NCBI GenBank assembly: GCA_001795615.1
Contig: MGKI01000014.1
Span: forward strand, 69,380-133,379
Reading direction: 5' to 3'
Length of the DNA stretch: 64,000 nt
Source: Candidatus Yanofskybacteria bacterium RIFCSPLOWO2_01_FULL_42_49
GTDB taxonomy: Bacteria > Patescibacteriota > Minisyncoccia > 2-02-FULL-40-12 > GWA2-44-9
In this document: in pieces, positions 1,953 to 28,790 of the stretch
Position numbering within the stretch: the stretch's first letter is position 1
Layout: the number at the start of each line of letters is the position of its first letter
Translations under genes and position numbers: made by a program
The notes under the pieces: model-generated
Told to the model about the DNA's origin: nothing
Seen by the model: only the letters and a program-made list of their open reading frames with translations
Databases searched by the model: none

Positions 1953-2015
1953 GGGTCGCTTTTGTTTTAATAATCTCATTGCTAATTTAATAAACATACT
2001 GTATGCTCATAAAAA

Positions 2016-2892
2016 TTGAACTTTAAAAATGAGGTTGATATGACAGTCTTGAAAGACAAAGCCAGGCAAATTAGATTGTTGGTTTTGGACATGATTTACC
2101 GCGCTAAAACCAGTCATATTGGAACAGCTTTTTCTTGTGCTGATATTTTAGCCGCCCTTTACTTTGGGAATGTCATGAACATACAACCAGAGTCACCATC
2201 TTGGCCCGAAAGAGACAGATTTATTTTAAGCAAAGGCCATGGCTGCTCCGCTTTTTACGCTGCTTTAGCGTTAAAAGGTTATTTTCCCTTAGAAATACTT
2301 GGACAATTTAGCCAGGATGGTTCAAATATTTCTTGTCATTCTACTCTGGGAGTTCTGCCCGGTATTGAAGCTACTGGCGGATCTGGTGGCCATGGTTTAA
2401 GCATCGGCGCGGGTATGGCTTTAGCGGCAAAATTAGATAGCAGAAGTTCTCAAATATTCGTACTAACCGGAGACGGAGAATGCCAGGAAGGTTCAATTTG
2501 GGAAGCAGCCATGTTTGCCGGGCAACATCAACTAAACAACCTAACCCTTATCGTAGATAACAACCAATTGCAAATTCTCGGTAAAACCAGAGAGATAATC
2601 AATCCGGAGCCGTTGCTAGATAAATTTAATGCTTTTAATTGGCAGATTAAACAAAATAAATATCAGGAAAGCCGTTTTTTCTCTTGAAGAACATAGTATT
2701 TACGGCGGTTTGGGAAGCGCGATTGCCGAAGTTATCAGCGAAGCCGGTTTTGAAGGAAAGCCGCCGGTTTTTAGAATGTTAGACGTCAAGGACAAATTCA
2801 CTTCTGTGATCGGTTCCGTAAGAACGCTTAGAAAAGACAATAATATAGACAGCGACAGTATCGTTAAAGAAATCTTACATTTAACGACCTAG
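2016..2892 (+). pseudogene. Transketolase remnant with an internal deletion and frame change
   Basis: ORF 2016-2687 encodes the N-terminal (TPP-binding) part, with GHGCSAFYAALALKGYF and TGDGECQEGSIWEAAMFAGQHQLNNLTLIVDNN. It stops early after FNAFNWQ. The overlapping ORF 2629-2892 in another frame encodes only the extreme C-terminal ~80 aa of the C-terminal subunit (EEHSIYGGLGSAIAEVISEAG...). The whole pyrimidine-binding domain (~250-300 aa) is missing. The likely original start is ATG 2040, with GAGG 7 nt upstream. Confidence 0.55.
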
Positions 2893-2894
2893 AG

Positions 2895-2918
2895 AGCAGC
2901 TTTTTCAGCTGCTTTTTA
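2895..2918 (+). terminator. Rho-independent terminator
   Basis: Stem GCAGCT/AGCTGC with loop TTTTC followed by TTTTT, immediately after the transketolase remnant stop. Confidence 0.5.
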
Positions 2919-2935
2919 TTTATAGAGCTGATGCC

Positions 2936-4003
2936 CTACCTACTTTCTATAAAATCTTTGACAATTTTATAATCAGCAAAATACTTTGATTCCGGCCTAG
3001 TGACATAGTCGGGGGGGTTGAATTTATAGTAGACCTTTTTAAGAAAGGGCTTATTTGAAGCAAAATGTTTCAGTTTTTTAAGTAGATCTAGTTCTGACCA
3101 AACAGACCCTGGTTTCGCAGAAGAAACGGGCTCTTTCTGCCCAATAGACAACCATGTTTTTTCTATAGAATATTGCTGGGCAAGATAAACAATGAACATC
3201 CCCCTAACGGCGAATCGGCTTTCTTTTTCTGATATGCCTTTTTTCCGTATAATTTCCGAGAATCCTTCTTCGCAAATTCTCCACTGCTCGCCGATAGACG
3301 GATGCATCAGAAAATCTTCCGTGAGACTGTGATCAAAGAAAGGCAGGTCGCTTCTTTGCATAATATATCCTAATTTATCAAGCACCTTGGCTTTGCCAGA
3401 AATTATCAGCATATCAAACAATAAAAATTCGAACATGTCCCCGGCTATGGCAAAGTGCTTTGTAATATTGCGTATTTCTCTCTCTGTTTCGGTTCTTGTG
3501 ACCGCAAAACAAATAAAATATTGGTCGGACCAGAAATTTTTTACCCGGGCAAGCATATTCTCGTCTTCAACTGATCTGCCGAATGGCCGAGTTTGTTTCT
3601 CAATAATACCAAAAGGGTTGTTATAATCCTCGCGTCGAAATCGAATATTGATCTGCTTGCCGGCGCAAGTCCCGTAATCGGGATTTTTTTCCAAAAAATC
3701 CGCGCATTCAGAGATGGTCTTTGGAATAATAATATCATCGTCGCATGACCGCACACAGTATTTTTCCTCTATAAAAGGCATCAGATTATATGTATGATCT
3801 TTCCCCGGAGGAGCCCATTGGTAAATTATCTTAAAATTTTTAAATTTCTTTATGCCATTCTTAAGCTTCTCGGCATTCTCCGGATTACTACTGTCTAGAA
3901 TATAAATCGGGTGAGGACTATTCATCAATTCATAGAACTCAAACTGCCTCAACATAAAATCAGGGCGGTTCATGGTGGAAATTATGATGGCCACTTTAAT
4001 CAT
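2936..4003 (-). CDS. Divergent GT-A fold (GT2-like) glycosyltransferase, paralog 1 of 3
   Basis: N-terminus KVAIIISTMNRPDF...PIYILDSSNPEN and a CDDDIIIP (DxD-like) motif. It shares strong protein and DNA similarity with the adjacent gene 3996-5156. Start and stop overlap that neighbour by 8 bp. Confidence 0.55.
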   Translation of the reverse strand: MIKVAIIISTMNRPDFMLRQFEFYELMNSPHPIYILDSSNPENAEKLKNGIKKFKNFKIIYQWAPPGKDHTYNLMPFIEEKYCVRSCDDDIIIPKTISECADFLEKNPDYGTCAGKQINIRFRREDYNNPFGIIEKQTRPFGRSVEDENMLARVKNFWSDQYFICFAVTRTETEREIRNITKHFAIAGDMFEFLLFDMLIISGKAKVLDKLGYIMQRSDLPFFDHSLTEDFLMHPSIGEQWRICEEGFSEIIRKKGISEKESRFAVRGMFIVYLAQQYSIEKTWLSIGQKEPVSSAKPGSVWSELDLLKKLKHFASNKPFLKKVYYKFNPPDYVTRPESKYFADYKIVKDFIESR

Positions 4004-5156
4004 TATGGTTTTTTTCTAAAAAATCTTTAACTACTTTAAAATCGTTAAAATATTTTGACTCCGGTCTGGTCGCATCGTTGGTGGGATGATATTTATAATA
4101 TATACTTTCAAGAAGCGGCCAGCGCGAAACAAAATATCTTGCTTTTTTAAACAAACCTCGTCCCAGCCGGGCAGATGTTGGCCGAGTAGGGGTAGATTTA
4201 AAATGACCGATCGTTTGGGTAACAGGCGGCCAATCGGTCTCCAAAGTAAACTGGCGCGCAAGATAAAGAACAAATATCCATTTGGCAATTTTTAATCCTT
4301 CTTCCTCTGTATACCCTTTTTCTCTTATGATTTCAGCGAATTCCTTATGGGCTATCGCCCATTGGCTGCTCATATTTGGATCTGTCACGACATCAACCGT
4401 TAAACTATGGGTAAAACTGTAACGGTTACTACTCTTTTGCATGACATACCCTAATTTGTCAAGCACTTTAAATTTACCGGAAATTACCAATATAGAAGTT
4501 GATAAAAATTCCAAGATATGTTCAGTCAAAGAAAAATACTTAGTAACATTTCGAATTGATTTTTCCAACTCAACGCTTCTAACCACGAAACAAATAAAAG
4601 CTACGTTTCTGATGGAAACTTCGGAGTTGTTAATCTTTAGATCAAACCAAAACTCCTTAACCCTGGCCAGCATATTATCATCTTCAAGCGACCTGCCATG
4701 CGGCAGTGTCTGACGCTCAATGATGCCGTAGGGCTTATTATAATTTTTCTTCTGAAAACTAAAATTAATCTGCTTTCCGGCGCAAGTTGCATAATCGGGA
4801 TTTTTTTCCAAAAAATCCGCGCATTCAGACATTGTACTGGGAATAAGAAGGTCGTCATCTCCCATCTGAATGCAGTACTTTTCTTTTACTTGGGGCAAAA
4901 GTTGATACAAACAATCTTTCCCCGGCGGAGCCCATTGATATATTATACTTAACTTCTTAAATTTCTTTATCTCTTTTTTTAACTTATCCGCATTCTCTGG
5001 ATTACTACTATCCAAAACATAAATCGGATGGGGACTATTCATCAATTCATAGAACTCAAACTGCCTCAATATAAAATCGGGACGGTTCATTGTTGGAATT
5101 AGGATGGCTACTTTAGTCATTGTTGAATGGTATAATTTGGGTACGATAAAGTCCAT
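3996..5156 (-). CDS. Divergent GT-A fold (GT2-like) glycosyltransferase, paralog 2 (tandem duplicate of paralog 1)
   Basis: TKVAILIPTMNRPDFILRQFEFYELMNSPHPIYVLDSSNPEN is near-identical to paralog 1, and the C-terminus ...TRPESKYFNDFKVVKDF is also conserved. Probable start is MTKVAIL at ~5120. Long nucleotide stretches are shared with paralog 1, for example around 3895-3990 and 5040-5100. Confidence 0.55.
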   Translation of the reverse strand: MDFIVPKLYHSTMTKVAILIPTMNRPDFILRQFEFYELMNSPHPIYVLDSSNPENADKLKKEIKKFKKLSIIYQWAPPGKDCLYQLLPQVKEKYCIQMGDDDLLIPSTMSECADFLEKNPDYATCAGKQINFSFQKKNYNKPYGIIERQTLPHGRSLEDDNMLARVKEFWFDLKINNSEVSIRNVAFICFVVRSVELEKSIRNVTKYFSLTEHILEFLSTSILVISGKFKVLDKLGYVMQKSSNRYSFTHSLTVDVVTDPNMSSQWAIAHKEFAEIIREKGYTEEEGLKIAKWIFVLYLARQFTLETDWPPVTQTIGHFKSTPTRPTSARLGRGLFKKARYFVSRWPLLESIYYKYHPTNDATRPESKYFNDFKVVKDFLEKNHND

Positions 5157-5175
5157 AGTTCTTGTTTATAACACC

Positions 5176-5206
5176 CGTTGATACCTTCTGACACTTTTTG
5201 ATACTG
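5176..5206 (+). promoter_or_regulatory. Phased TGAYAC direct repeats (x3, 10 bp spacing), a promoter/operator-like motif upstream of the HemN-like gene
   Basis: TGATAC at 5179, TGACAC at 5189 and TGATAC at 5199, separated by T-rich spacers. The region can also be read as TTGATA-N16-GATACT (sigma70-like). A GAGGGG SD precedes ATG 5279. The same motif recurs at 6711-6741 and 18454-18493. Confidence 0.5.
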
Positions 5207-5278
5207 ATACAAAGTACTGGACAATATCTGTTAAATTTATTATGATTTTGTCAAAGCTTCTTAAAAACGAGGGGTAAA

Positions 5279-6664
5279 ATGCTCAAGAATGTGAACCCAA
5301 ATATATTACAAATAACCAATGCCTTTATGTATACCGAATACCCCCACAAGAGTTTTTGGTCAACTGATATGGGAAGTGAAGATTGTCATTCGGCGCTACT
5401 TGAATTATTAACCGATGAGCCCAATGTCCCTCTTTTGCTCTATGTCCATATATTGTACTGCACAAAACTTTGCTGGTTCTGTAATTGTCACATAGGAGAG
5501 ATCACCCAAAGCCAAGACAAGAGAAAAGATTATCTTGAGCTTCTTTATTCAGAAATACGATTGTTTAAGAAACTTTTTGACAAACACTCTTTGGCTCCGA
5601 ATTTTACAGAAATACATCTAGGAGGCGGATCTCCTACGGATCTTAGCATGAATGACTTTAGCCGACTGGTAGAAAATTTGAGTTCAATCGTAGATATCAA
5701 AAACTTGAGTGAATTTTCTATTGAAATAGATCCAAGACACAGCAGCAGAGAAATGCTTAGATTTTACCATAACCAAGGAATAAACCGAATTTCCTTTGGA
5801 ATTCAGGACTTTGACCCTGGTGTCCAAAAAGCCATTAACAGAATCCAGCCGATAGAGCTTGTAGAAAAACTTATGGGGCCGGAAATTAGTGATCTTTTCC
5901 CCAATGGTATAAATTTTGACATTATTTGCGGCCTGCCTCATCAAACAACCGAAACAATCAAGAGAACGATGGATGAATGTGTCCGTCTTTCGCCGGATAG
6001 GATTTGCTTCAATTATCTCCACCAGGCTCCCGAATTTTCAAAACATCAGCGACTTATGTCTGACGGTAAATTTGGAAGACCAGATCATCTTCCGGATTAT
6101 TATGAGAGGAAAAAACTCTTCACTATAGCCATGGAAACATTGATTAAAGCCGGCTATATCCGCACCGGATATGACCATTTTGCCAAACCAACTGATGCCG
6201 TGGCCAAGGCGATGGCAGAAGGTAAAATGCAATGGAATGCATTGGGAGTTACTGCGGGAAGATACACCAGTATTATTGGCGTGGGAATCCAGAGTTTTAG
6301 CACAATCGGCAATTATTATTTTCAGAATTTTTATGACTTGAAAAAATACCGGGAATCTTTGAGACAAGGACAATTTCCGATTTTCCGCGGCCATCGGCAA
6401 AACCAAGATGATCTTATCAGAAGAGATGTTATTCAAACTTTAAGAAGTTTCTTTTCTATAGATTTCAGATGTATTGACGAAAAATACGCTATTAATTTTG
6501 AGGAATATTTCGATCCAGAACTTGTGGCATTAGATGATTATGTAAGGGACGGCCTGATAGAAATAAAAGACAGGTCGATTATTATTACTGAGAAAGGGCA
6601 TCAATTCGCTAATACTGTCTGTTATGTATTTGATAAATATAAAAAAAATCGGCCCAAATTTTAA
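5279..6664 (+). CDS. HemN-like radical SAM enzyme (coproporphyrinogen III oxidase-like / class C radical SAM family)
   Basis: CTKLCWFCNC gives the HemN-type CxxxCxxCxC cluster, and HLGGGSPT matches the HemN GGGTP-like motif. Length is 461 aa and a terminator follows. Confidence 0.8.
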   Translation: MLKNVNPNILQITNAFMYTEYPHKSFWSTDMGSEDCHSALLELLTDEPNVPLLLYVHILYCTKLCWFCNCHIGEITQSQDKRKDYLELLYSEIRLFKKLFDKHSLAPNFTEIHLGGGSPTDLSMNDFSRLVENLSSIVDIKNLSEFSIEIDPRHSSREMLRFYHNQGINRISFGIQDFDPGVQKAINRIQPIELVEKLMGPEISDLFPNGINFDIICGLPHQTTETIKRTMDECVRLSPDRICFNYLHQAPEFSKHQRLMSDGKFGRPDHLPDYYERKKLFTIAMETLIKAGYIRTGYDHFAKPTDAVAKAMAEGKMQWNALGVTAGRYTSIIGVGIQSFSTIGNYYFQNFYDLKKYRESLRQGQFPIFRGHRQNQDDLIRRDVIQTLRSFFSIDFRCIDEKYAINFEEYFDPELVALDDYVRDGLIEIKDRSIIITEKGHQFANTVCYVFDKYKKNRPKF

Positions 6665-6682
6665 AATTTGGGCCTTTTTATT
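6651..6682 (+). terminator. Rho-independent terminator
   Basis: A perfect 12 bp palindromic stem GGCCCAAATTTT/AAAATTTGGGCC is followed by TTTTTATT. An A-tract lies upstream. Confidence 0.6.
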
Positions 6683-6710
6683 AAAACTCGCCTATTCGGT
6701 TTACAGCGTC

Positions 6711-6741
6711 CGTTGACACTTTCTGACACTTTTTGATACTC
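6711..6741 (+). promoter_or_regulatory. Phased TGAYAC direct repeats (x3), a promoter/operator-like motif with very short leader to ATG 6752
   Basis: TTGACAC at 6713, TGACAC at 6724 and TGATAC at 6734 at 10 bp spacing. A TAAAAT -10-like hexamer sits at 6743-6748, only 4 nt before the ATG, so the message is leaderless or nearly so. Confidence 0.5.
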
Positions 6742-6751
6742 TTAAAATATC

Positions 6752-7852
6752 ATGGGCAATGAACAAAATACAAAAGTAGCCATATCAATATCCACAATGA
6801 ACCGGCCGGATTTCTTGGCTCGTACTCTTAATTATTACGCAAAATGTAAATCCCCCCACCCGGTCTATTTGTCCGATTCAAGTAGCCCTGAAAATGTTAA
6901 GATAATTAAATCAATTCTGAAAAAACTAGATAATAAATTAGAGATACATTACAACTGGCTCCCGCCCGGGTTAGAACCCCACGAAAGAACGCTTTCTGTG
7001 GTAAAAGAAAAATACGCCCTCATTAACGGAGACGACGACTACGAAATACCGTCCACTTTAACTAAGTGCGCAGAATTTCTAGAGAATAACCCGGACTATA
7101 CTGCAGCTGGGGGTCATGGCATATCTTTTCGACTTAAAACCAGTGGTCCATACGGAGAAATAAAAAGGTTGGCCGACTATCCTTTTTATCCAATTGAAGC
7201 AAATACGGCCTCTCAAAGATTAAATGATTTTTTAAAAAAATGTTTCGTCGTCACATCCGGAGTAAATCGAGTTGAACATTTGAAGAAGATCTGGGTCATT
7301 CCGTTGCCCATAATAAACACCTGGAGCGAACTATTTCAGATAAGCCATTGCGCCGTGTCCGGTAAAATAAAATTGCTGGACTGCCTGGGCATAGTTCGGC
7401 ACATTCATGACCAGCAATATTACCTGACAAGTATGGTTGATTGGCTGACCGAAAAAGAATTCTATAATTATTATACGATATTCCAAGACCACCTTGCTAA
7501 AACAATCGCAAAAATTGACAATGTTTCCATAGACCAGGCAAAACAAACTGTTAAAAACGCCTTCTGGGAATACCTGCAAGTATATATGGCAAACGAAAAA
7601 AAAGGATTGGGGGCTAACAATGAGGAGTTAAAGACAAGCTCCCCTACTTTAAAAACGTTAAGAGTAACGCTCGGAAAGACTTTTCCTGTTTTAAAAACCG
7701 CTTACCGTCAATACTTAAGACCCTTTATCTCTGATAAACAACAGATGCATTATGACGCGATGAACTCACGCTCTCCATATTTTAAAGAGTTTCAGTTTGT
7801 AATGGATTCGTTCACGGGAAAGGATATAAAAACACATGACCAACAACAATAA
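6752..7852 (+). CDS. Divergent GT-A fold (GT2-like) glycosyltransferase, paralog 3
   Basis: TKVAISISTMNRPDFLARTL...PVYLSDSSSPEN and NGDDDYEIP share the architecture of the two paralogs at 2936-5156. It is the first gene of a long + strand operon. Confidence 0.55.
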   Translation: MGNEQNTKVAISISTMNRPDFLARTLNYYAKCKSPHPVYLSDSSSPENVKIIKSILKKLDNKLEIHYNWLPPGLEPHERTLSVVKEKYALINGDDDYEIPSTLTKCAEFLENNPDYTAAGGHGISFRLKTSGPYGEIKRLADYPFYPIEANTASQRLNDFLKKCFVVTSGVNRVEHLKKIWVIPLPIINTWSELFQISHCAVSGKIKLLDCLGIVRHIHDQQYYLTSMVDWLTEKEFYNYYTIFQDHLAKTIAKIDNVSIDQAKQTVKNAFWEYLQVYMANEKKGLGANNEELKTSSPTLKTLRVTLGKTFPVLKTAYRQYLRPFISDKQQMHYDAMNSRSPYFKEFQFVMDSFTGKDIKTHDQQQ

Positions 7853-8981
7853 ACAAAACAAAAGAAGCGTGGGATTTATCCCCTACGGCCGACAATCAAT
7901 TGATAATGATGATATTAAGGCCGTCGTTAATGTCTTGCGTTCGGACTGGTTGACCCAGGGTCCTGCGGTAAAACAATTTGAAGAGTCGCTGGCTAAATAT
8001 TGCAACGCCAAATATGCCGTAGCCGTTTCAAACGGCACGGCCGCTCTTCATTTAGCGTATTTAGCCGCCGATTTAAGCGCCGGTGATGAAGTTATCACAA
8101 CCCCAAATACATTTGCCGCAACTTCAAACATGCTCCTGGCGGTTGGAGCAAAACCTATTTTCTGTGATATACGGCTTGATAACTATAATCTTGACGAAAC
8201 AAAAATAGAAAAACTTGTCACCTCAAAAACAAAAGCCATAGTTCCGGTCCATTTTGGCGGCCATCCGTGCAATATGGACAAAATATTAAGTATGGCCAAA
8301 AAACACAGCCTGCTCGTAATTGAAGATGCTTGCCATGCTCTAGGCGCCTCATTTAAGAATGAGAAGGTTGGCGGCATCGGTGATATGTCGGTTTTCAGTT
8401 TTCATCCGGTCAAATCAATAACTACCGGTGAGGGTGGGGCAATTCTGACAAATAATCCTAAATTTTATAAAAAACTGGCCCATCTCCGAACACATGGCAT
8501 AACCAAAGATGAGGGTGGATTCAATGTTATGACCGCACTAGGTTATAACTACAGAATTACCGATATTCAGACGGCCTTGGGAATAAGTCAGTTGAAGAAA
8601 CTGGATAAATTTGTAAAAGCTAGGCAGAAGATTTTCGATATCTATAAAAAAGAGCTGGCCGGTGTAAAAGAGGTCTTCACTCCCTCTCTGGCCAAAAACT
8701 CCGTTTCTTCAAATCATCTTTTTGTAATAAGGACAAAAGACCCAACAAAAAGAAATCCTCTTGCTAATTTTCTTAAACAAAACGGCATAGGCGTAAATTT
8801 TCACTATCCAACCGTTTATTCCCACCCTTATTACAGAAAAAATGGCTATAAAGATGTAAAACTAGCCAACGCCGATCTATATCATAACTCCTGTATCACG
8901 CTTCCGCTTTATGTAACACTAGAAAAGAGCCAAATAAAATACATATGCAATAAAATAAAGGAATTCTTTAAAAAAGTTTAA
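7836..8981 (+). CDS. DegT/DnrJ/EryC1/StrS-family PLP-dependent sugar aminotransferase (PseC/LegC-like)
   Basis: Contains DWLTQGP and SNGTAALHLA, the Schiff-base lysine context FHPVKSITTGEGGAI, and YNYRITDIQTALG. The ORF overlaps the upstream gene. Confidence 0.85.
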   Translation: MTNNNKQNKRSVGFIPYGRQSIDNDDIKAVVNVLRSDWLTQGPAVKQFEESLAKYCNAKYAVAVSNGTAALHLAYLAADLSAGDEVITTPNTFAATSNMLLAVGAKPIFCDIRLDNYNLDETKIEKLVTSKTKAIVPVHFGGHPCNMDKILSMAKKHSLLVIEDACHALGASFKNEKVGGIGDMSVFSFHPVKSITTGEGGAILTNNPKFYKKLAHLRTHGITKDEGGFNVMTALGYNYRITDIQTALGISQLKKLDKFVKARQKIFDIYKKELAGVKEVFTPSLAKNSVSSNHLFVIRTKDPTKRNPLANFLKQNGIGVNFHYPTVYSHPYYRKNGYKDVKLANADLYHNSCITLPLYVTLEKSQIKYICNKIKEFFKKV

Positions 8982-9090
8982 AGTAGAGAATTAAAAGTTA
9001 AAAATCAAAGTTACAAGTTAAAATTTTTTATATATAACTTTGAATTTAAAACTTTAACTTTCAACTTTACACTTTTAACTTTTTACTTAT
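8982..9090. repeat. Palindromic AT-rich AAGTTAAAAG / AACTTTCAACTT repeat element filling the intergenic gap (copy A)
   Basis: The left arm (AAAAGTTAAAAATCAAAGTTACAAGTTAAAA) and the right arm (AACTTTGAATTTAAAACTTTAACTTTCAACTTTACACTTTTAACTTTTT) are near reverse complements. It shares the k-mers AAGTTAAAAG, ACTTTCAACT and CTTTTAACTT with copy B at 60874-61005. Confidence 0.7.
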
Positions 9091-10950
9091 ATGCAAACAT
9101 ACCTACTTTTTGAGATAGCCAATTCCTGCGCTGGGTCGAGCAAATTGATAGAAAAGTTGATAGATTCCCTACCGCAAGAGGATAATTTTGGCATTAACCC
9201 CCACACTCACTTTAGATATAGCTCAAAGAGCCAAAAACTAAAGCAAGTTAAAGTGAGTGTGGGGGTAAAATTTCAAGTTTATAAGTATAACGAAATTGCC
9301 TTATCCGACTATGAATGGTATCCGGTTTATAAGCAAACCTTCATAAATGCGCAGAATTGGAAAAAGATTTTTGCTCATGCAAAGAGCAAGGGCTTTGATA
9401 TCTGGATAGATGTTTTTGATCTATATAGCGTAGAAGTTATTAAAGATAATCTGCCGTTGGTAACCGGAATAAAACTCCAGTCTTCTGTTTTGAATAACCT
9501 CAAGGTATTGACTGCATTATCTGAAGTAATAAAAAACGGAAAGATTACGGTGATGTTAAATGTTGCCGGCAGAGACCTATCAAACATCAAAGAGTTGCTT
9601 AAAGATATAAGATCAAATTATTTTGACAATAAAATTATACTTCAAGCCGGTTTTCAGGGATATCCCACCGATAAAGAAGATCTAACCGTAAGTAAGGTCC
9701 GGATCTTAAAATCCGAATTTCCTAGTACAATAATATCTTATGCCGATCATGTTGACGGCAGTTCGCCTCTTGCGTTTGATATTCCGGTTTTTGCCGTATT
9801 GGCCGGCGCCGAGCACATAGAAAAGCATGTCTGCTTAGACAGGAAAAATACAAAATACGACTTCCAATCAGCAATTGAGCCCTATGAATGTGATCTATTA
9901 ATTTACAAGCTTAATGAAGCCGAAAAAATATTGGGAACAAAGTTTATACCAGACAAGGAAGCAAATTACCTCAAAACAACAATAGAGAAACCAATCGCTT
10001 CAGTTCATTTGAGAGCCGGCGATATTATAAATTTCAAAAACTTTGACTTTAGAAGAACCGGGCAGGAGGGGCTGACTGTAGCTGAAATAAAAGAATATAT
10101 GGAAAAAAGGTACGTACTGAAAAATGATATAAAGCCCGGGAAACCGATAACAAAAAATGATCTGAAAAAAGCCAGAGTAGGCGTTATTATCGCCTGCCGA
10201 ATGAAGTCAACCCGCTTAAAACATAAAGCCATATTACCCATTCAAGGACTGGCATCAATCGAAAGATGTATTTTGAACGCTAAAAAAATTAAATCGGCTG
10301 ATGAGATAATTTTGGCAACTTCAACCCTTGAAGAAGATCAAATTCTAAAAAAATACGCCTTAAAGCATAGGATCCGTTTTTTTGCCGGAGACCCCGAGGA
10401 TGTCATACTCCGCTATTTAGGCGTAGCTGAAAAATATAATCTTGATGTTACAATCCGAGTTACCGGTGATTGCCCGATAGTGTCGTATGAGATGGCCAAA
10501 TTTTTACTGAAAAGACATTTTGAAAAAGGTAATGATTATACTGGCCCCAAAGAATATTGTACCGGACAAAATAGCGAAATATACAGTGTAAATACATTAA
10601 AAAGAATTATAAAGTACTTGGGTGATGCCAGACATTCCGAATATATGACTTGGTATATGCTTACTAATAAAGACATCTTCCAAGTAGATATGGCCGAATT
10701 GCCCAAAGAATGGATCCGCGCTTACCGGCTAACCCTGGATGTCCAAGAAGACCTTGATATGTTTAATGCCTTATTTGAAAAATTGGGCAAAAAAGAAGTA
10801 AGCATTAAAAATGTATTCGGGGTAATTGACAAGAATCCCTGGATTCACGAACTTAACGATGCCATGGTTCTTAAATACAAATCGGATAAAAAATTAATAG
10901 ACATGCTGAATAAAGAAACGAGGATAAATCCGCCCAAAATTAAAAAATGA
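9091..10950 (+). CDS. Fusion protein: divergent NeuB-like (sialic/nonulosonic acid synthase-like TIM barrel + SAF domain) fused to an acylneuraminate cytidylyltransferase-like domain (SpsE-SpsF-like)
   Basis: N-terminal ~340 aa: the order of blocks matches NeuB (...GIKLQSSVLNNLKVL..., ...ISYADHVDGSSPLAFDIPVFAVLAGAEHIEKHVCLD...) and is followed by a SAF-like segment (VHLRAGDIINFKNFDF). C-terminal ~250 aa: ARVGVIIACRMKSTRLKHKAILPI...ILATS...IRVTGDCPIV is typical of CMP-sugar cytidylyltransferases (NeuA/PseF/SpsF). Confidence 0.6.
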   Translation: MQTYLLFEIANSCAGSSKLIEKLIDSLPQEDNFGINPHTHFRYSSKSQKLKQVKVSVGVKFQVYKYNEIALSDYEWYPVYKQTFINAQNWKKIFAHAKSKGFDIWIDVFDLYSVEVIKDNLPLVTGIKLQSSVLNNLKVLTALSEVIKNGKITVMLNVAGRDLSNIKELLKDIRSNYFDNKIILQAGFQGYPTDKEDLTVSKVRILKSEFPSTIISYADHVDGSSPLAFDIPVFAVLAGAEHIEKHVCLDRKNTKYDFQSAIEPYECDLLIYKLNEAEKILGTKFIPDKEANYLKTTIEKPIASVHLRAGDIINFKNFDFRRTGQEGLTVAEIKEYMEKRYVLKNDIKPGKPITKNDLKKARVGVIIACRMKSTRLKHKAILPIQGLASIERCILNAKKIKSADEIILATSTLEEDQILKKYALKHRIRFFAGDPEDVILRYLGVAEKYNLDVTIRVTGDCPIVSYEMAKFLLKRHFEKGNDYTGPKEYCTGQNSEIYSVNTLKRIIKYLGDARHSEYMTWYMLTNKDIFQVDMAELPKEWIRAYRLTLDVQEDLDMFNALFEKLGKKEVSIKNVFGVIDKNPWIHELNDAMVLKYKSDKKLIDMLNKETRINPPKIKK

Positions 10951-11516
10951 CAACAATATACATACTGGGCGGATTTTTAAAAAAAAATCGTGACGGAAGC
11001 TACGGCAGTGATCAATTAAGTTACATAAGGGTTCTGGCCGGATATTATCTTTACAAAAAATTATCTGGAAAAAACAAGATCGAACTGATTGTTTCTGGAA
11101 GCAGAGGAATTTATAGAGGAACTCCGGGCATTCCTCGAGTGGCAATAGTAATGAAACGGGAGCTGATAGAATTAGGCCTAAGCCCAAAAGAAATAAAAAT
11201 AGATAAAACGGACTTTACTTACAAGGAACTTATCTGGCTAAAAAAATATATAGCTAAAAAAACTGGGAAAGCATTTATTGTATCTAATGCCTACCACTTA
11301 CCCAGGATTAAAACGATGATCGATATTCTTCCAGAATTGAAGGAATTAAAAAATATAATTAAATTAGTCCCCGCGGATAAAATAGCAATTAAATTCGACG
11401 AAAAATTAAAACCCAGAATTAAAAAAGCCAATAAAAGTTCGGAAATGAAAAAAATAATTTCTTCTGAAAAAGAGGGTATACGCGCATTAAGATCAGGTAA
11501 CTATAAATTCAGGTGA
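10947..11516 (+). CDS. DUF218/YdcF(ElyC)-like domain protein
   Basis: ELIVSGSRG, TDFTYKEL and IVSNAYHLPR match the conserved DUF218 blocks. Length is 189 aa and the ORF overlaps both neighbours. Confidence 0.55.
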   Translation: MTTIYILGGFLKKNRDGSYGSDQLSYIRVLAGYYLYKKLSGKNKIELIVSGSRGIYRGTPGIPRVAIVMKRELIELGLSPKEIKIDKTDFTYKELIWLKKYIAKKTGKAFIVSNAYHLPRIKTMIDILPELKELKNIIKLVPADKIAIKFDEKLKPRIKKANKSSEMKKIISSEKEGIRALRSGNYKFR

Positions 11517-12583
11517 TGGAAAAACTCATAGTAAAAATAGGGAATGAGAAAAGGGAGATCGGCCCTAACCAGCCGGCTTTTATAATTGCCGAAATGTCGG
11601 CTAATCATGGACATAACATCAGGAAAGCGTACAAAATAATCGACGAAGTAGCCAAAGCTGGTGCAGATGCAATAAAACTTCAAACCTATACTCCGGACAC
11701 GATAACCATTGATTCAAATAAAAAATACTTCCAAGTAGAAATAAATGATGCTTGGAAAGGTCAGACTCTTTACAGCTTATATAGCAAAGCATACACACCT
11801 TGGGAGTGGATGCCAAAATTAAAAAAATACGCTGAAGACAAGGGACTGGTATTTTTTTCCTCTGTTTTTGACAATACTTCAGTTGATTTTCTAGAGACAA
11901 TTAACGTACCGATCTATAAGGTGGCATCCTTTGAAGTGGTCGATATTCCCCTTCTTAAAAGAATAGGCAGAACAAAAAAACCAGTTATTATATCCCGAGG
12001 TATGTCTACCCTCTCCGAACTGAAGTTAGCTCTTAAAACGTTAAAAAATGCCGGTACTTCTTCAATCGCAATCCTTCATTGTGTAAGTTCTTATCCGGCT
12101 AAATTCGACGAAATGAATATTTATACAATTACCGATCTAATAAAAAAATTCAATCATGTCGTCGGTCTTTCTGATCATTCTCCCGGAGCAACGGCCTCAA
12201 TAGCTGCCGTGAGCTTGGGAGCAAAAGTTATAGAAAAACACATAATTTTGTCCCGTTCCGAAGGCGGACCGGACGCTGCTTTTTCTCTTGAGCCAAATGA
12301 ATTCAAAAAACTTGTTGACTCTGTCCGAAATACTGAGGCTGCGTTGGGTAAGCCTTTTTACGGCTCAGGAATAAAAGAGTCGGAAAATATTGTTTTTAGA
12401 AAGTCACTTTTTGTCGTTGAAAATATTAAAAAGGGTCAAAAATTTACAGCTCAAAATATCCGTTCAATCCGCCCCGGACATGGTCTTGAACCGAAATATT
12501 ATGAGCGGGTTATTGGAAAACTAGCCAAAGTTGACCTAGAAAAAGGCACACCGCTTAAATTAATCCACATAGAAAATGTCTAA
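11513..12583 (+). CDS. N-acetylneuraminate/pseudaminate/legionaminate synthase family (NeuB/PseI/LegI) with C-terminal SAF domain
   Basis: The N-terminus GPNQPAFIIAEMSANHGHNIRKAYKIIDEVAKAGADAIKLQTY is canonical NeuB. It also contains GLSDHSPG, LGAKVIEKH and GPDAAFSLEP, and ends with a SAF-like tail. Confidence 0.85.
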   Translation: MMEKLIVKIGNEKREIGPNQPAFIIAEMSANHGHNIRKAYKIIDEVAKAGADAIKLQTYTPDTITIDSNKKYFQVEINDAWKGQTLYSLYSKAYTPWEWMPKLKKYAEDKGLVFFSSVFDNTSVDFLETINVPIYKVASFEVVDIPLLKRIGRTKKPVIISRGMSTLSELKLALKTLKNAGTSSIAILHCVSSYPAKFDEMNIYTITDLIKKFNHVVGLSDHSPGATASIAAVSLGAKVIEKHIILSRSEGGPDAAFSLEPNEFKKLVDSVRNTEAALGKPFYGSGIKESENIVFRKSLFVVENIKKGQKFTAQNIRSIRPGHGLEPKYYERVIGKLAKVDLEKGTPLKLIHIENV

Positions 12584-13190
12584 AATTGGGGTAATCAACT
12601 ATGGCGTTGGCAATCTGCAATCCGTGAAAAACTCACTGGATTTTTTAGGCATTCCAAACGAAATTGTCGACAAGTCGCAGGAGATAAGTAGTTTTGACAA
12701 AATAATTCTGCCGGGAGTAGGCGCTTTTGGAGCCGCAATAAAAAAATTAAATGACCTTGGTTTTACTGAAGAAATAAGAAAATTCTCCAGCCAAAATAAG
12801 CCAATCCTCGGTATCTGTCTAGGTATGCAGCTTCTATTTGATGAGAGTTACGAACACGGCCACCACCAAGGTTTAGGATTAATAAAGGGAAGGGTTCTGC
12901 CTTTCAATGAAAAAATAAAAAACCTGCCTCTGCCTCAAATCGGTTGGAATAACATAACTAAAGTAGGCGTATCCCCTATTTTAAAAAATGTCGAGGATAA
13001 TTCTTGTTTTTATTTTGTCCATAGTTTTTATTGCGAACCAGAGAAAAAAACTGCCACAATAGCTAGTTCTGATTATGGCATAAAATTTGCGGCAATTATT
13101 AACGAAAATAATATCTTCGGCTGCCAGTTCCACCCGGAAAAAAGCCAGTCGGCCGGACTTCATATATTAAAGAATTTCTCTAGCCTATGA
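12576..13190 (+). CDS. HisH-like glutamine amidotransferase subunit (glycan-associated, WbuY/PseA-partner type)
   Basis: Class I GATase motifs: ILPGVGAFG, GICLGMQLL and the FHPEKS triad. It sits next to HisF-like and PP-loop amidotransferase genes rather than his genes. Confidence 0.8.
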   Translation: MSKIGVINYGVGNLQSVKNSLDFLGIPNEIVDKSQEISSFDKIILPGVGAFGAAIKKLNDLGFTEEIRKFSSQNKPILGICLGMQLLFDESYEHGHHQGLGLIKGRVLPFNEKIKNLPLPQIGWNNITKVGVSPILKNVEDNSCFYFVHSFYCEPEKKTATIASSDYGIKFAAIINENNIFGCQFHPEKSQSAGLHILKNFSSL

Positions 13191-13972
13191 TTAAACGACG
13201 CTTAATACCAGTACTTTATATTAAGAATGGCCTTATCGTAAGAAGCGAGGGATTTTCTTATCACCACAATATAGGCAACGTGGTAAAAGAAGCTGCTCGC
13301 TATAATAGCTGGGATGTTGACGAGTTAATTTATATAGACATAAGTCGAGAAAAACACTACGATCTCCGCCGTGACGATTATAATGTAAACGCCTACAACT
13401 CAATCGGATCCATCATTAAAGAAATATCCAAGGTTTGCTTTATGCCCTTAACCTTTGGAGGGGGCATACGAACTATTGATGATGTCAGTTTCAGGATACA
13501 AAATGGGGCTGATAAAATAACCTTAAACACCGGCGCACTTGAAAATCCAAAATTAATAACTCAAGCAGCTGAGAGATATGGTTCACAAGCCGTGGTGATA
13601 TCTATTGATTATAAAATTATTGAAAACCAACCAATCGTATTCACTGATTTTGGCCAAAAAAATACGAGCAAATCTGTTTACAACTGGGTCAAAGAATGCG
13701 AAAATCTAGGTGCTGGAGAAATATTTATTAACTCGATTGACCGAGATGGAAAAGCCAACGGCTACGATATTGAAACAATCAATAAAACCGTCGCATCTAC
13801 TAAATTACCCACTATCGCTTGCGGCGGAGCTGGAAATCTTGAAGATTTTGTTGAACTGGCGAAACAAACAAATGTTTCAGCCGTAGCCGCTGGAAACATA
13901 TTTCACTTTACCGAGTTAAGTTATCCAAGATCAAAAATATTGCTTAAAAAAAATAATTTAAATTTCCGTTAA
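13187..13972 (+). CDS. HisF-like cyclase subunit (glycan-associated, WbuZ-type)
   Basis: (beta/alpha)8 HisF-like blocks: RLIPVLYIKNG, LTFGGGIRT and IACGGAGNLEDF. Its position fits the acetamidino-sugar trio. Confidence 0.8.
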   Translation: MIKRRLIPVLYIKNGLIVRSEGFSYHHNIGNVVKEAARYNSWDVDELIYIDISREKHYDLRRDDYNVNAYNSIGSIIKEISKVCFMPLTFGGGIRTIDDVSFRIQNGADKITLNTGALENPKLITQAAERYGSQAVVISIDYKIIENQPIVFTDFGQKNTSKSVYNWVKECENLGAGEIFINSIDRDGKANGYDIETINKTVASTKLPTIACGGAGNLEDFVELAKQTNVSAVAAGNIFHFTELSYPRSKILLKKNNLNFR

Positions 13973-13973
13973 C

Positions 13974-15173
13974 ATGACTAAGATAACATACTGCACAAAG
14001 TGCGTTTATCCCTCAAGTTCTGCTGTTCCCCTTGCCTTTGATGAAAAAGGGTTGTGTTCCGGCTGTAGAACCAGCGGAGAAAAAGCACAGATAGATTGGG
14101 ACGATCGCAAGAAAAAATTTGAGGATATTATTGAAGAATACCGCAATAAAGACGGCACTGGTTATGATCTAATAATTCCAGTTTCCGGAGGCAAGGACAG
14201 TTACTTTCAAGTCCATCTTATGAAAAAAATTTATGGACTTAATCCGCTTCTGGTAACCTACAACGGCAACAACTATACTCCGACCGGAATGGAAAATCTC
14301 ATTAACATGAGAAATGTTTTTGGAGTTGATCATATTTTCTTCACGGCCAACATTGATGTGCTGAAAACATTAAATCGCCTCGGTGTCCAAATTTTGGGTG
14401 ATATGCAGTGGCACTACGCTTCGGGCATCTACACATACCCAATAAGGGTAGCCGTAGAGACCAAGACGCCCTTGATGCTCTGGGGCGAACACGGGCATAT
14501 GGATCTTGGCGGAATGCACTCATATAATGACTTGGTGGAATTTACATACAGATATCGGCACGAACATGTAATTCGAGGATACGAGTGGACTGATTTTTTA
14601 AAAAGAGCGCCAGAATTCGGCGAAAAACTAACTAAACAACAACTAATCCCTTGGATGTATCCTTCAGATGAGGAGATAGCTAGTGTTGGTGTTCGGGGTA
14701 TTTATACCGCTAATTATTTTAAATGGGATGCCAATATCCACGGGCCAATGGTAATGGAAAAATACGGTTTTAAGGTACCCGATGAACCTTTTGAAAGGAC
14801 TTATAGAAAGATGTCAAACTTAGACGATATGCATGAGAATGGCGTACATGATTACCTAAAGTTTATAAAATTTGGCTATGGTCGAGCAACTGACCATGTT
14901 TGCAAAGATATCCGATCGGGCATTATGACCCGTGAACGAGGAATTGAATTAGTTAAAAACATGGACCACCTCAAACCAAAAGATACCCAGCGATGGTTAA
15001 AATATGTCGGTTGGACAGAAGAAAAATTTGATAAAATTGCCGATACTTTCCGCGACCAGCGAGTTTGGTGGATCAAAGACGGCCAGTGGTGGAAAGACAA
15101 TCTTTGGAGGGAACCATCTGCTTACGGAAAGGTCCACTTGGACCCGAAACAACAGAAAAAATACTTATTGTAA
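13974..15173 (+). CDS. N-acetyl sugar amidotransferase (PP-loop ATP pyrophosphatase; PseA/WbpG/WbuX-like)
   Basis: An N-terminal Cys-rich segment CTKCVYPSS...CSGCR is followed by the PP-loop SGGKDS. Length is 399 aa and it follows the HisH/HisF homologs. Confidence 0.8.
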   Translation: MTKITYCTKCVYPSSSAVPLAFDEKGLCSGCRTSGEKAQIDWDDRKKKFEDIIEEYRNKDGTGYDLIIPVSGGKDSYFQVHLMKKIYGLNPLLVTYNGNNYTPTGMENLINMRNVFGVDHIFFTANIDVLKTLNRLGVQILGDMQWHYASGIYTYPIRVAVETKTPLMLWGEHGHMDLGGMHSYNDLVEFTYRYRHEHVIRGYEWTDFLKRAPEFGEKLTKQQLIPWMYPSDEEIASVGVRGIYTANYFKWDANIHGPMVMEKYGFKVPDEPFERTYRKMSNLDDMHENGVHDYLKFIKFGYGRATDHVCKDIRSGIMTRERGIELVKNMDHLKPKDTQRWLKYVGWTEEKFDKIADTFRDQRVWWIKDGQWWKDNLWREPSAYGKVHLDPKQQKKYLL

Positions 15174-15231
15174 ATTTTACTTTTAACTCATTCATGCTAT
15201 CATCCTGTTAGTTTTTCAATACCGAGTAAAC

Positions 15232-15674: not shown

Positions 15675-15691
15675 GACCCCGAGAAGGGGTC
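15675..15691. terminator. Bidirectional hairpin between convergent genes
   Basis: GACCCC-GAGAA-GGGGTC. On the - strand it is followed by TTTTATG. It overlaps the stop codons of both flanking genes. Confidence 0.5.
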
Positions 15692-18453: not shown

Positions 18454-18493
18454 GTTGATATCTGTTGACACCTTTTGACATCTTTTGATACTC
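18454..18493 (+). promoter_or_regulatory. Phased TGAYAY direct repeats (x4, exact 10 bp spacing), promoter/operator-like
   Basis: TGATAT at 18456, TGACAC at 18466, TGACAT at 18476 and TGATAC at 18486, with CTTTT spacers. An AGAGG SD lies ~10 nt before ATG 18521. Confidence 0.5.
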
Positions 18494-28758: not shown

Positions 28759-28790
28759 AAAAAAAATAAAAACCCTCTAATCTGAGGGTT
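28759..28790 (-). terminator. Rho-independent terminator of the radical SAM gene 28789-30369
   Basis: On the - strand, AACCCTCAGATTAGAGGGTT is followed by TTTATTTTTTTT. It overlaps the stop codon. Confidence 0.65.

Follow-up and report, generated by a model that had tools for sequence, protein, structure and literature searches.

A HemN-derived radical SAM subfamily in surface-glycan loci, probably a sugar-tailoring enzyme beside TIGR04440 glycosyltransferases

What does a gene named coproporphyrinogen III oxidase in the databases (NCBI, UniRef) do between glycosyltransferase genes of an uncultured groundwater bacterium, Candidatus Yanofskybacteria (CPR/Patescibacteria)? The stretch of DNA analyzed here (the window, 64 kb) is as a whole one glycan island, belonging to a surface-glycan biosynthesis island of very large size, and a search of these 64 kb found no heme genes. 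The features concerned are as follows.

2936-4003, minus strand: GT1, predicted GT-A glycosyltransferase of the TIGR04440 family, 355 aa (ORF; TIGR04440, 133 bits)
3996-5156, minus strand: GT2, predicted GT-A glycosyltransferase of the TIGR04440 family, 386 aa (ORF; TIGR04440, 135 bits)
5164-5225, plus strand: hemN upstream element in which TGAYAY recurs three to four times every 10 bp; it forms the first copy of a direct repeat of 62 nt (repeat and promoter-like scans)
5279-6664, plus strand: HemN-like radical SAM protein of the glycan-locus subfamily, 461 aa (ORF; TIGR00538; 1OLT match; model)
6651-6682, plus strand: intrinsic-terminator-like hairpin that overlaps the stop of hemN (10-bp stem, five GC pairs, T-run)
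6699-6760, plus strand: element upstream of the GT3/pse operon; it forms the second copy of the 62-nt repeat and contains TGAYAY three times (TTGACA-16-GATACT)
6752-7852, plus strand: GT3, predicted GT-A glycosyltransferase of the TIGR04440 family, 366 aa (ORF; TIGR04440, 135 bits)
7836-15672, plus strand: nonulosonate operon (PseC, NeuB-like::cytidylyltransferase fusion, DUF218, PseI, GATase and HisF-like pair, WbuX-type amidotransferase, GNAT)
18456-18491, plus strand: third copy of the motif (TGAYAY four times), upstream of an MptE/Maf-like gene (18521-19414)
28789-32614, minus strand: genes of two B12-binding radical SAM proteins, one of 526 aa and one of 709 aa

The HemN-like protein scored 364 bits against the TIGR00538 HemN equivalog profile (cut-off 325) and matched 1OLT over its full length (E 1.4e-75), and its model (pLDDT 92) superposed on that structure with TM 0.86/0.91. 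The HemN machinery is complete, comprising the [4Fe-4S] cysteines Cys61/65/68, the fourth cysteine (Cys70), the first-SAM contacts, the second-SAM-stacking Tyr, GGGSP at residues 115-119, the N-terminal trip-wire (YTEYP) and the HemN_C domain. The first-pass annotation, which had read the protein as HemN-like from its CxxxCxxCxC and GGGSP motifs, was right about both the motifs and the likeness. However, six near-invariant positions of canonical HemN are replaced (R22M, R308W, F310A/S, Q311L, Y313V, and I329Y/F), two of them being arginines that became Met and Trp. The replacements are conserved: M22 and W308 occurred in all 116 sequences at ≥51% identity, and L311 in all with one exception, whereas R22, R308, F310, (Q/M)311, Y313, and I329 were kept in more than 100 of approximately 112 lower-ranked 50%-cluster representatives as well as in E. 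coli HemN. F310, Q311, and I329 reportedly contact the second SAM in HemN (Layer et al., 2003/2005). Judged by the replaced residues, the window gene belongs to a distinct HemN-derived subfamily, which comprises at least 116 sequences.

Twelve distinct loci with this subfamily, from CPR bacteria and other phyla, were examined (the window, L019, L020, L022, L024, L025, L027, L028, L029, L030, L032, and L033). All 12 were glycan loci, and none contained a tetrapyrrole gene. Because heme genes are absent from the window and from these loci and invariant residues are replaced, the protein is not plausibly a heme-pathway enzyme; CPR bacteria are also not known to have respiratory chains or most cofactor pathways, which counts against an ordinary HemN as well. 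The usual neighbors were B12-binding radical SAM proteins of ∼625 aa and ∼714 aa, PhyH, NUDIX, DegT, and NDP-sugar epimerases. B12-binding radical SAMs were present in 11 of the 12 loci (L027 has the HemN-like gene and none of them) and PhyH in seven, and one protein, P0032, is a HemN-like::PhyH fusion. The ∼625-aa enzyme lay directly upstream of the HemN-like gene in seven of eight CPR loci, and in L032 the two overlap in a manner that suggests translational coupling; it is this enzyme, not the glycosyltransferase, that is the most constant neighbor. The tightest linkage of the HemN-like gene is to a cobalamin enzyme, which a cofactor-handling role would fit too. In the window, the 709-aa enzyme at 28789-32614 is a KedN5-like paralog of the ∼714-aa partner found elsewhere, and two further B12-binding radical SAMs, of 625 aa and 709 aa, sit just upstream of where the window starts (L001), 6.6-8.8 kb upstream of hemN and only 80 bp apart.

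The three putative transferases are real ORFs sharing the signature and conserved C-terminus described in the first pass: KVAI.I.TMNRPDF, SPHP.Y..DSS.PEN, DDD, and C-terminal S.YF..F..V.D, with 93 invariant columns in the protein alignment. Each far exceeded the 70-bit cut-off of the NCBIfam profile TIGR04440 (E ∼1e-38 to 1e-39), a similarity far above chance, and none matched Pfam PF00535. The GT3 AlphaFold (AF2) model (pLDDT 90.4) retrieved SpsA, TarS, TarP, and WrtF (PDB 1H7L, 5TZE, 6H1J, and 9OMN) with Foldseek probability 1.00. Like these enzymes, the window proteins have a Rossmann-like, GT2-like N-terminal catalytic domain with the DxD (D94-D96 in GT3) at the end of strand 4, D94, D95, and D96 being invariant across 45 sequences; in contrast, sequence identity is only 10-16%, and a family-specific, all-helical C-terminal domain of ∼140 residues with a conserved S-x-Y-x-x-D/E-F motif sets the window proteins apart. 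Profile and model together identify GT1-GT3 as predicted metal-dependent GT-A glycosyltransferases, consistent with the fold first proposed, and place them in a named but uncharacterized family, on which we found no literature, rather than in a well-characterized one with a known product.

GT1 is the second gene of the GT2-GT1 pair; its start overlaps the stop of GT2, as had been noted, and the overlap is 8 nt long. The two had also been described as recently duplicated in tandem, with long stretches of nearly identical nucleotides; tandem duplication is upheld, but the recent date and the near-identical runs are not. GT1 and GT2 share 56-58% amino acid and 67.7% DNA identity, with a longest exact run of 38 nt and a best 300-nt stretch that is 78% identical (GT1 and GT3 share 31-33% amino acid identity). 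In a related Yanofskybacteria genome (L007), orthologs of GT1 and GT2 were 62% and 64% identical to them, compared with 53-54% across paralogs. Since each has its own ortholog there, the duplication is older than that speciation, and the pair is an old tandem duplicate. At the other end, the GT3 stop (7852) overlaps the PseC start (7836), and PseC (460 bits, cut-off 423.5) and PseI (455, cut-off 340) both exceeded their thresholds, so that GT3 heads a pseudaminic-acid-type operon, in agreement with the initial description.

The transferase genes do flank the radical SAM gene in position, as the image of a module wrapped around it implied; however, hemN has a promoter-like motif of its own and a strong predicted terminator, and is predicted to form a transcription unit by itself, not co-transcribed with either GT here. 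Its TGAYAY element also reads as a sigma-70-like TTGATA-16-GATACT, and the 31-nt core of the element is matched twice within the window, where chance would give 0. The 62-nt copies are 77% identical; the upstream element of GT3/pse with its three TGAYAY repeats ends 12 nt 5' of the GT3 start codon, the motif recurs upstream of the GT3 ortholog in L007, and the hairpin at 6651-6682 separates hemN from GT3.

It had further been claimed that the HemN-like gene is tightly paired with a private GT-A family, and this was not borne out. A TIGR04440 gene occurred within 5 kb of the HemN-like gene in seven of 12 loci, and directly downstream (46-91 nt) in four independent genomes (the window, L022, L030, and L033), all scoring above the family cut-off. 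Conversely, none of 12 other TIGR04440 loci had a HemN-like gene within 10 kb, including the closest relative, L007, which carries the same GT trio with ∼108 bp at the hemN site; L007, L010, L012, and L013 have the B12-radical SAM/PhyH/TIGR04440 set without it. Linkage in relatives is therefore partial, with the glycan-locus placement kept across phyla, and the pairing is facultative.

These absences, the promoter-like motif and terminator belonging to hemN, and the direct repeat flanking it would suit a rearrangement accident, in which the HemN-like gene belongs to a B12-radical SAM/PhyH cassette, the transferases to the nonulosonate operon, and no specific function couples them. We consider this unlikely, though it is the alternative that survives best. 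The three further genomes with the transferase directly after the HemN-like gene are well diverged (HemN identity 54-73%, transferases only 36-40% identical to GT3), and one is non-CPR; in L010, L013, and L016, a TIGR04440 gene follows the ∼714-aa B12-binding radical SAM. Such recurrence indicates that TIGR04440 serves as the transferase arm of the cassette that also holds the HemN-like gene.

The best explanation of the whole is probably that the HemN-derived subfamily supplies a sugar-tailoring enzyme to the surface-glycan island, beside TIGR04440 transferases. The enzyme would then act in a nucleotide-sugar or sugar-substituent pathway and not as a coproporphyrinogen dehydrogenase. HemN-family enzymes use a two-SAM radical relay with Tyr56 stacking (PMC10114718, PMC13266988); here, the first SAM would be cleaved to the 5'-deoxyadenosyl radical, the radical relayed via the second SAM's methyl group, and the resulting methylene radical would act on a substrate that is less anionic and not a tetrapyrrole. 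Granted a sugar role, a HemN-type hydrogen abstraction that ends in an O2-independent oxidation, either desaturation or oxidative decarboxylation, is tentatively favored, with somewhat less than even confidence, and a one-carbon transfer of the class C type is possible with less confidence still. The modified sugar may then be installed by the neighboring GT3-type transferase. In this genome, hemN seems to have moved away from its usual place between the two B12 radical SAMs, now 80 bp apart, and become a monocistronic cassette between the divergent GT2 and GT3 genes, where it is equipped with a terminator of its own and a copy of the promoter element of the GT3 type. The conserved glycan setting and the altered residues point to a so far undescribed radical step during the modification of sugars. 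Several observations speak against sugar tailoring: the HemN equivalog cut-off is passed, heme biosynthesis genes are reported in some CPR MAGs (PMC12577380), the HemN-like gene is facultative in relatives and here not co-transcribed with either GT, and its tightest linkage is to a cobalamin enzyme.

A class C radical SAM enzyme, either a methyltransferase (as suggested at the outset) or a cyclopropanase, seems rather improbable; it would take a one-carbon unit from the second SAM and add it to an sp2 carbon in a sugar intermediate. The HemN-like fold, the conserved SAM-II-stacking Tyr, and the abundance of methylation functions in subfamily loci are in its favor, and class C enzymes routinely receive the name HemN by mistake (PMC10114718). 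Nevertheless, the scores do not indicate this function (HemN 258 bits against 60 for NocN; ChuW/HutW 135, cut-off 400), the HemN-specific trip-wire that NocN lacks is kept, the cassette already holds two to four B12-dependent radical SAMs and several class I methyltransferases, and the usual targets, non-nucleophilic sp2-hybridized carbons (PMC13266988), are uncommon in sugar intermediates.

Still less probable is a HemW-like tetrapyrrole- or corrinoid-handling protein that delivers or conditions scavenged cobalamin for the adjacent B12 radical SAMs and does not act on sugar. The constant B12-dependent neighbor agrees with it, tetrapyrrole binding is common to all heme-related HemN relatives (PMC10114718), and the change from arginine to hydrophobic residues would suit a corrinoid with amide side chains. 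But the same B12 enzymes occur without the HemN-like gene in four loci and the gene without them in L027, the window hemN lies kilobases from its nearest B12 radical SAMs, and the score against HemW was only 112 bits (cut-off 205). The fourth Cys and the trip-wire are kept, neither of which HemW is known to have, and no corrinoid-handling chaperone of this kind is known, which also weighs against it. Finally, that the protein is a plain oxygen-independent coproporphyrinogen III dehydrogenase (HemN/CgdH) lying in the glycan island by chance, with its heme genes elsewhere, is very hard to credit: the profile score, full-length superposition and database name favor it and heme biosynthesis genes are reported in some CPR MAGs (PMC12577380), but the residue replacements and the 12 glycan loci stand against it, and the PhyH fusion and the coupling to a B12 radical SAM would be senseless for heme synthesis.

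Compared with known systems, the sugar-tailoring candidate has the full architecture and fold of E. coli HemN/CgdH at 33-38% identity, sharing CxxxCxxCxC, GGG(S/T)P, Tyr56, His58, Glu145, Gln172, Arg184, Asp209, the YTxYP trip-wire, and HemN_C; it differs in the six replaced positions and in the glycan loci of its subfamily, which occurs in CPR bacteria and is sometimes PhyH-fused or coupled to a B12 radical SAM. The class C enzymes and their relatives (NosN/NocN, TbtI, C10P, YtkT, and ChuW/HutW) are likewise HemN-derived and recruited outside heme synthesis, with two SAM sites and the stacking Tyr (PMC10114718, PMC13266988), yet are distant in sequence. A 2022 review of HemN-like enzymes lists no function on a carbohydrate pathway (PMC10114718), and we found no such case in the literature. 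HemW, the heme chaperone (TIGR00539), is a HemN homolog that retains cluster and SAM binding and has lost coproporphyrinogen dehydrogenase activity; the setting of the window protein is glycan, not heme. Radical SAM tailors of sugars include DesII, BtrN, and the B12-dependent C-methyltransferases GenK/GenD1, and the diol dehydratase AprD4 (PDB 6FD2) similarly acts on sugar/aminoglycoside intermediates from within a sugar gene cluster. Unlike the window protein, none of these is of the HemN (two-SAM) type, and in the one CPR glycan island studied here as many as five radical SAMs, of three types, stand together.

We regard it as fairly probable that the HemN-like protein of the window is a tailoring enzyme of a sugar-modification cassette with multiple radical SAM enzymes, whose product is installed by GT-A glycosyltransferases of the TIGR04440 family; what is said here of function beyond fold, family and genomic context, we infer. 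The four open reading frames (ORFs) of the first-pass annotation were all present at exactly matching coordinates. They comprise three paralogous glycosyltransferases (GT1, GT2 and GT3) and the gene of the 461-aa HemN-like radical SAM protein (hemN), and lie among the following features:

2936-4003, minus strand: ORF, GT1, 133.1 bits on TIGR04440
3996-5156, minus strand: ORF, GT2, 135.3 bits on TIGR04440
5178-5205: hemN promoter-like element TTGATA-16-GATACT, with a GAGGGG ribosome-binding site
5279-6664, plus strand: ORF, radical SAM gene (hemN)
6651-6674: terminator with a 10-bp stem, downstream of hemN
6713-6740: GT3 element TTGACA-16-GATACT, ending 12 nt before the GT3 ATG
6752-7852, plus strand: ORF, GT3, 134.9 bits on TIGR04440

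The HemN-like protein scored 364.3 bits on the HemN equivalog model TIGR00538, above the cut-off of 324.95, and three relatives from its subfamily (P0032, P0047 and P0091) scored 382-414 bits. It aligned end-to-end with E. coli HemN (1OLT; residues 17-458 to 22-447, E 1.4e-75), and its structural model (pLDDT 92.1) superposed on 1OLT with TM 0.86/0.91, bearing out the HemN-like fold expected at first; no other solved structure was close to the model. The three-part HemN architecture was intact, comprising the N-terminal trip-wire, the radical SAM core and HemN_C (PF06969 match). Scores were far below the cut-offs of HemW (TIGR00539, 112 vs 205.4 bits) and ChuW/HutW (TIGR04107, 135 vs 400 bits), the HemZ cut-off likewise lay far above the score obtained, and NocN (9P2U) matched over the core only, with 59.9 bits. 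Membership of the class C radical SAM methyltransferases, which the first-pass annotation had raised, was thus not borne out by any above-cut-off match to the characterised members (TIGR04107 and NocN). The tyrosine that stacks at the second SAM (Tyr56 of HemN, Tyr34 of NocN; PMC13266988) corresponds to the invariant Tyr55 of the query; it is common to class C methyltransferases, HemN and the query and is therefore non-discriminating. A 263-aa fragment that falls into the 90%-identity cluster of the query comes from a 1.8-kb contig filed with a Nitrospirae MAG (OGW68559.1), probably through a binning error.

The subfamily, defined here as 116 full-length sequences with at least 51% identity to the query, is a coherent group. 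In E. coli numbering, the cluster and first-SAM residues Y56, H58, C62/66/69/71, GGG, E145, Q172, R184 and D209 were invariant in all 116, and CxxxCxxC, the fourth Cys and GGGxP were also intact in these and in the query; a second alignment gave the same invariance. R22 was invariantly replaced by Met and R308 by Trp, Q311 was Leu in all sequences except one, F310 was Ala/Ser, Y313 mostly Val and I329 Tyr/Phe. The query itself carries M, W, A, L, V and F at R22, R308, F310, Q/M311, Y313 and I329, departing from the canonical HemN pattern. An exhaustive search over 1.84 billion cluster representatives confined this pattern to the top few, and more than 100 lower-ranked full-length matches, at the same distance from the query as E. 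coli HemN, kept R22, R308, F310, Q/M311, Y313 and I329. The signature rests on the invariance of F310/Q311/I329 in canonical HemN, not on an assigned role in second-SAM contact; A243L was dropped as a signature position, since the result varied with the alignment. M22/W308/L311 versus R22/R308/(Q/M)311 offers a simple rule for separating the subfamily from canonical HemN. Judged from these residues, the subfamily retains the two-SAM radical engine of HemN and class C enzymes (PMC10114718, PMC13266988), with a pocket that seems to be re-lined at the most constrained positions of canonical HemN and with two arginines gone. The changes may reflect a shift to a less anionic, non-coproporphyrinogen substrate.

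Contexts of the HemN-like gene were gathered from exact-protein look-ups, and 12 distinct loci were examined; a metagenome scan with a single HemN-like protein added one locus only. Eight belong to CPR (Patescibacteria) clades (the window's own locus L001, L019, L020, L022, L024, L025, L029 and L030), with 70-78% identity to the query, the window itself aside, and four are more distant (L027, L028 (Elusimicrobia), L032 and L033), with 54-59% identity. A TIGR04440 glycosyltransferase lay within 5 kb in 7 of the 12 loci, and in the window, L022, L030 and L033 it followed directly downstream on the same strand, at 46-91 nt. These neighbouring transferases all scored above the family cut-off, with 133-147 bits in L022, L030, L029 and L025. 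The HemN-adjacent transferases share no more than 36-40% identity with GT3, so that their place next to the HemN-like gene was either kept or regained while the sequences diverged considerably. The downstream transferase of L033 (11354-14091) is split by a DDE transposase into an N-terminal part (11357-11878) and a C-terminal part (13606-14085).

The reverse test gave a different picture: in 12 TIGR04440 loci taken from species-representative genomes, a HemN-like gene never occurred within 10 kb. The linkage seen in the first-pass annotation therefore stands as a directly downstream transferase in four loci, whereas its private character does not. The set of B12-binding radical SAM (B12-rSAM) genes and PhyH immediately adjoins a TIGR04440 gene in L007, L010, L012, L013 and L016, with the HemN-like gene absent; L007, the closest relative of the window, has the same divergent GT3 / GT2-GT1 trio, with only ~108 bp at the position of hemN. 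The HemN-like enzyme is a frequent but optional cassette member, and TIGR04440 looks like the transferase arm of the cassette and not like a partner private to HemN. In the window genome, only 80 bp separate the 625-aa and 709-aa B12-rSAM genes, which are found 6.6-8.8 kb upstream of hemN, indicating that hemN has left its usual slot. The slot between the two B12-rSAM genes holds in L007 a second PhyH paralogue (14449-15162), translationally coupled to a 622-aa B12-rSAM, and in L010 an epimerase; PhyH as an aerobic equivalent replacing the HemN-like enzyme would fit L007 but not L010, and was retained as no more than a weak hint. That hemN adjoins the glycosyltransferase trio by accident is a possible but unlikely reading, which would be compatible with the proposed tailoring role for GT1 and GT2, less so for GT3.

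All 12 subfamily loci were glycan loci. A B12-rSAM gene of ~625 aa stands directly upstream in seven of the eight CPR loci, counting the ORFs of L022 and L029 truncated at contig ends, and overlaps the start of the HemN-like gene in L032; a KedN5-like B12-rSAM of ~714 aa is usually nearby. PhyH occurs in 7 of the 12 loci, and in the metagenomic protein P0032 (742 aa) a subfamily HemN-like part, scoring 382 bits on TIGR00538, is naturally fused to a PhyH dioxygenase domain at the C-terminus. Other frequent neighbours encode NUDIX, a ~455-aa radical SAM protein, DJ-1, DegT, SDR/epimerases, an E1/transketolase pair and HAD. In L013 (4894-6003) and L028 (3427-5147 and 21359-21446), the cassettes carry either genes of GmhA-like SIS and GmhB-like HAD phosphatase type or genes for a GHMP kinase, a cupin and a nucleotidyltransferase; such genes hint that the cassette may act on a backbone of NDP-heptose type. 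Phosphonate chemistry was rejected, as the 625-aa B12-rSAM and PhyH only weakly resemble P-methyltransferases and PhnY*, with scores of 117 and 27 far under the cut-offs of 575 and 500, and a PEP-mutase-type gene is listed in no locus. A corrinoid-handling helper serving the neighbouring B12 enzymes is an improbable alternative to sugar tailoring. A genuine heme-pathway HemN is highly improbable: the TIGR00538 equivalog cut-off is passed, but the signature residues are replaced and heme or tetrapyrrole genes occur in none of the 12 loci (the window and the other 11).

The glycosyltransferase paralogues share the signature recognised at first, with 93 invariant columns in a full-length alignment that include the N-terminal motif, DSS-PEN, DDD and the C-terminal motif, and the stop of GT2 overlaps the start of GT1 by 8 nt as described. 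Their reading as divergent GT-A enzymes proved correct. All three exceed the curated cut-off of 70 bits of TIGR04440, an NCBIfam 'domain'-type glycosyltransferase model, over an N-terminal domain of ~215 residues, and had no Pfam match at E <= 0.01, PF00535 (Glycos_transf_2) included; some relatives match PF00535 weakly. A literature search found no paper mentioning TIGR04440. In an AlphaFold2 model of GT3 (45-sequence alignment; pLDDT 90.4, pTM 0.88), the GT-A domain spans residues ~8-220 and was matched best by structures of the GT2 enzymes SpsA (E 1.6e-11), TarS, TarP, WrtF, AvpGT, K4CP and RmlT, all at probability 1.00, and residues 228-366 form a family-specific helical domain. D94-D95-D96, invariant in the 45 family members and directly following strand 88-93, occupies the classical DxD position in the model. 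By analogy with other GT-A/DxD enzymes, the donor is predicted to be an NDP-sugar and not a CMP-nonulosonate; transfer of a nonulosonate is more plausibly assigned to the MptE/Maf-like gene at 18521.

By contrast, GT1 and GT2 are not the recent tandem duplicate that had been proposed: they share 56-58% amino acid and 67.7% DNA identity, with a longest exact run of 38 nt. Since L007 holds separate orthologues of GT1 (62%) and GT2 (64%), compared with 53-54% across paralogues, the duplication predates the split from that genome.

The hemN and GT3 promoter-like elements are parts of a 62-nt direct repeat with 77% identity, and in each the TGAYAY unit recurs three to four times at an exact spacing of 10 bp. 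This pattern occurs at only three sites in the window, against a chance expectation of none. The third of them precedes the Maf-like gene, and the pattern is also intergenic in seven other CPR loci:

Window: 5169-5204, 6714-6739, 18456-18491
L007: 8789-8814
L008: 8873-8898
L009: 9927-9952, 12151-12176
L010: 12317-12342
L012: 14933-14958
L022: 4471-4496, 9459-9484
L025: 15977-16002

In several CPR lineages, Saccharibacteria included, operons of glycan loci begin 10-75 nt downstream of such a site, which could serve them as a common promoter or as the operator at which a direct-repeat-binding regulator acts. Because the motif precedes other operons, the 62-nt repeat is primarily a shared promoter/operator; a transposition footprint was rejected, as the same motif precedes other operons both here and in other CPR genomes, and only the extra flanking similarity suggests local duplication. 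With its own promoter-like element and terminator, and with GT3 carrying its own element, hemN is monocistronic; it is probably regulated in common with the GT3/pse and Maf-like operons, without being co-transcribed with the glycosyltransferases. The position of the GT3 element implies a near-leaderless transcript.

GT3 does head the nonulosonate operon, which is of pseudaminic-acid type, as its stop overlaps the start of the PseC aminotransferase gene. PseC scored 460 bits (cut-off 423.5) and PseI 455 (cut-off 340), and the operon also holds a NeuB-like::cytidylyltransferase fusion, DUF218, a GATase/HisF-like pair, a WbuX-type amidotransferase and GNAT. The fusion (9091-10950, 619 aa) joins a divergent NeuB-like domain, with 80 bits on Pfam NeuB and far under the NeuB and PseI equivalog cut-offs, to a CMP-sugar cytidylyltransferase domain; it lies two genes upstream of the genuine PseI (11513-12583) and is kept in L007 and the compared locus L008 at 75-84% identity.

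The entire 64-kb window is a glycan island, with more than 12 GT4/GT2 transferases, NDP-sugar epimerases/dehydratases, methyltransferases, a carbamoyltransferase, deacetylases, and PMT-like and O-antigen-ligase-like membrane proteins; no tetrapyrrole or heme gene was found in it. Two B12-binding radical SAM genes lie at 28789-32614 (28789-30369 and 30485-32614). Together with L001 1-3413, at least four large genes of this kind occur within ~45 kb of glycan genes, which is striking for a CPR bacterium, presumably unable to make cobalamin. Sizeable ORFs without Pfam match lie at 15691-16761, 25525-27096, 27103-28500, 40573-41514 and 59593-60180, one with only faint similarity to BFO_1060-type glycosyltransferases. 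A decayed, split transketolase at 2016-2892 consists of a 223-aa N-terminal TPP-domain ORF overlapping an 87-aa ORF that keeps only the Transketolase_C tail (E 0.0015), the pyrimidine-binding domain being absent; its identical state on six independent contigs indicates that it is fixed in the population. Composition gave no sign of recent horizontal transfer around hemN, the GC content of 2001-8000 (0.376-0.399) being inside the window range (0.353-0.420). The exact proteins are present in two NCBI MAGs of Candidatus Yanofskybacteria and in many groundwater metagenome contigs, and the nearest glycosyltransferase loci are from Yanofskybacteria, Paceibacterota and Saccharibacteria.

If the HemN-like protein does act on a sugar, the favoured option, at slightly less than even chances, is that HemN-type hydrogen abstraction drives an O2-independent oxidation or oxidative decarboxylation; class-C-type C1 transfer would be a somewhat less favoured possibility. 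Oxidation is preferred because every class C enzyme is far more remote from the protein than HemN is, the trip-wire is kept, the cassette already holds several methylases, and a dioxygenase gene accompanies the HemN-like gene and in one case is fused to it. We give even chances to a broader proposal, in which an unrecognised pathway widespread in CPR, Elusimicrobia and other anaerobe lineages would use a HemN-type two-SAM enzyme, two or three cobalamin-dependent radical SAM enzymes and PhyH to build a heavily modified sugar, installed on the cell surface by TIGR04440 as a dedicated GT-A family. A conserved cassette joining a HemN-type enzyme to several B12-dependent radical SAM enzymes would point to surface sugars of unusual chemistry on the ultra-small CPR bacteria whose glycan islands carry it; such sugars matter because these bacteria rely on cell-cell attachment to hosts.

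The proposal also bears on annotation. Subfamily members exceed the NCBIfam HemN threshold and are named 'coproporphyrinogen III oxidase' (so the query in NCBI and UniRef), which can yield false inferences of heme biosynthesis from metagenome-assembled genomes; if the proposal is true, the curated HemN 'equivalog' model gives the wrong label to an entire isofunctional subfamily and makes reports of heme biosynthesis in CPR genomes too numerous. Mis-annotated subfamily members may be among the 'heme biosynthesis' genes that one study describes from CPR MAGs (PMC12577380).

Literature searches on HemN-like enzymes with sugars or glycosyltransferases, HemN in Patescibacteria, coproporphyrinogen oxidase in O-antigen clusters, and CPR with pseudaminic acid and radical SAM returned nothing relevant. 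HemN-like proteins are a source of unexpected radical chemistry, including methylation, cyclopropanation, heme degradation and chaperoning, and their non-heme roles are well known. A carbohydrate-pathway member appears neither in the 2022 review of HemN-like proteins (PMC10114718) nor in the literature searched, and the HemN equivalog model at present takes in the subfamily. If the proposed role is true, it would make this protein the first of the HemN family with a demonstrated action on a sugar.
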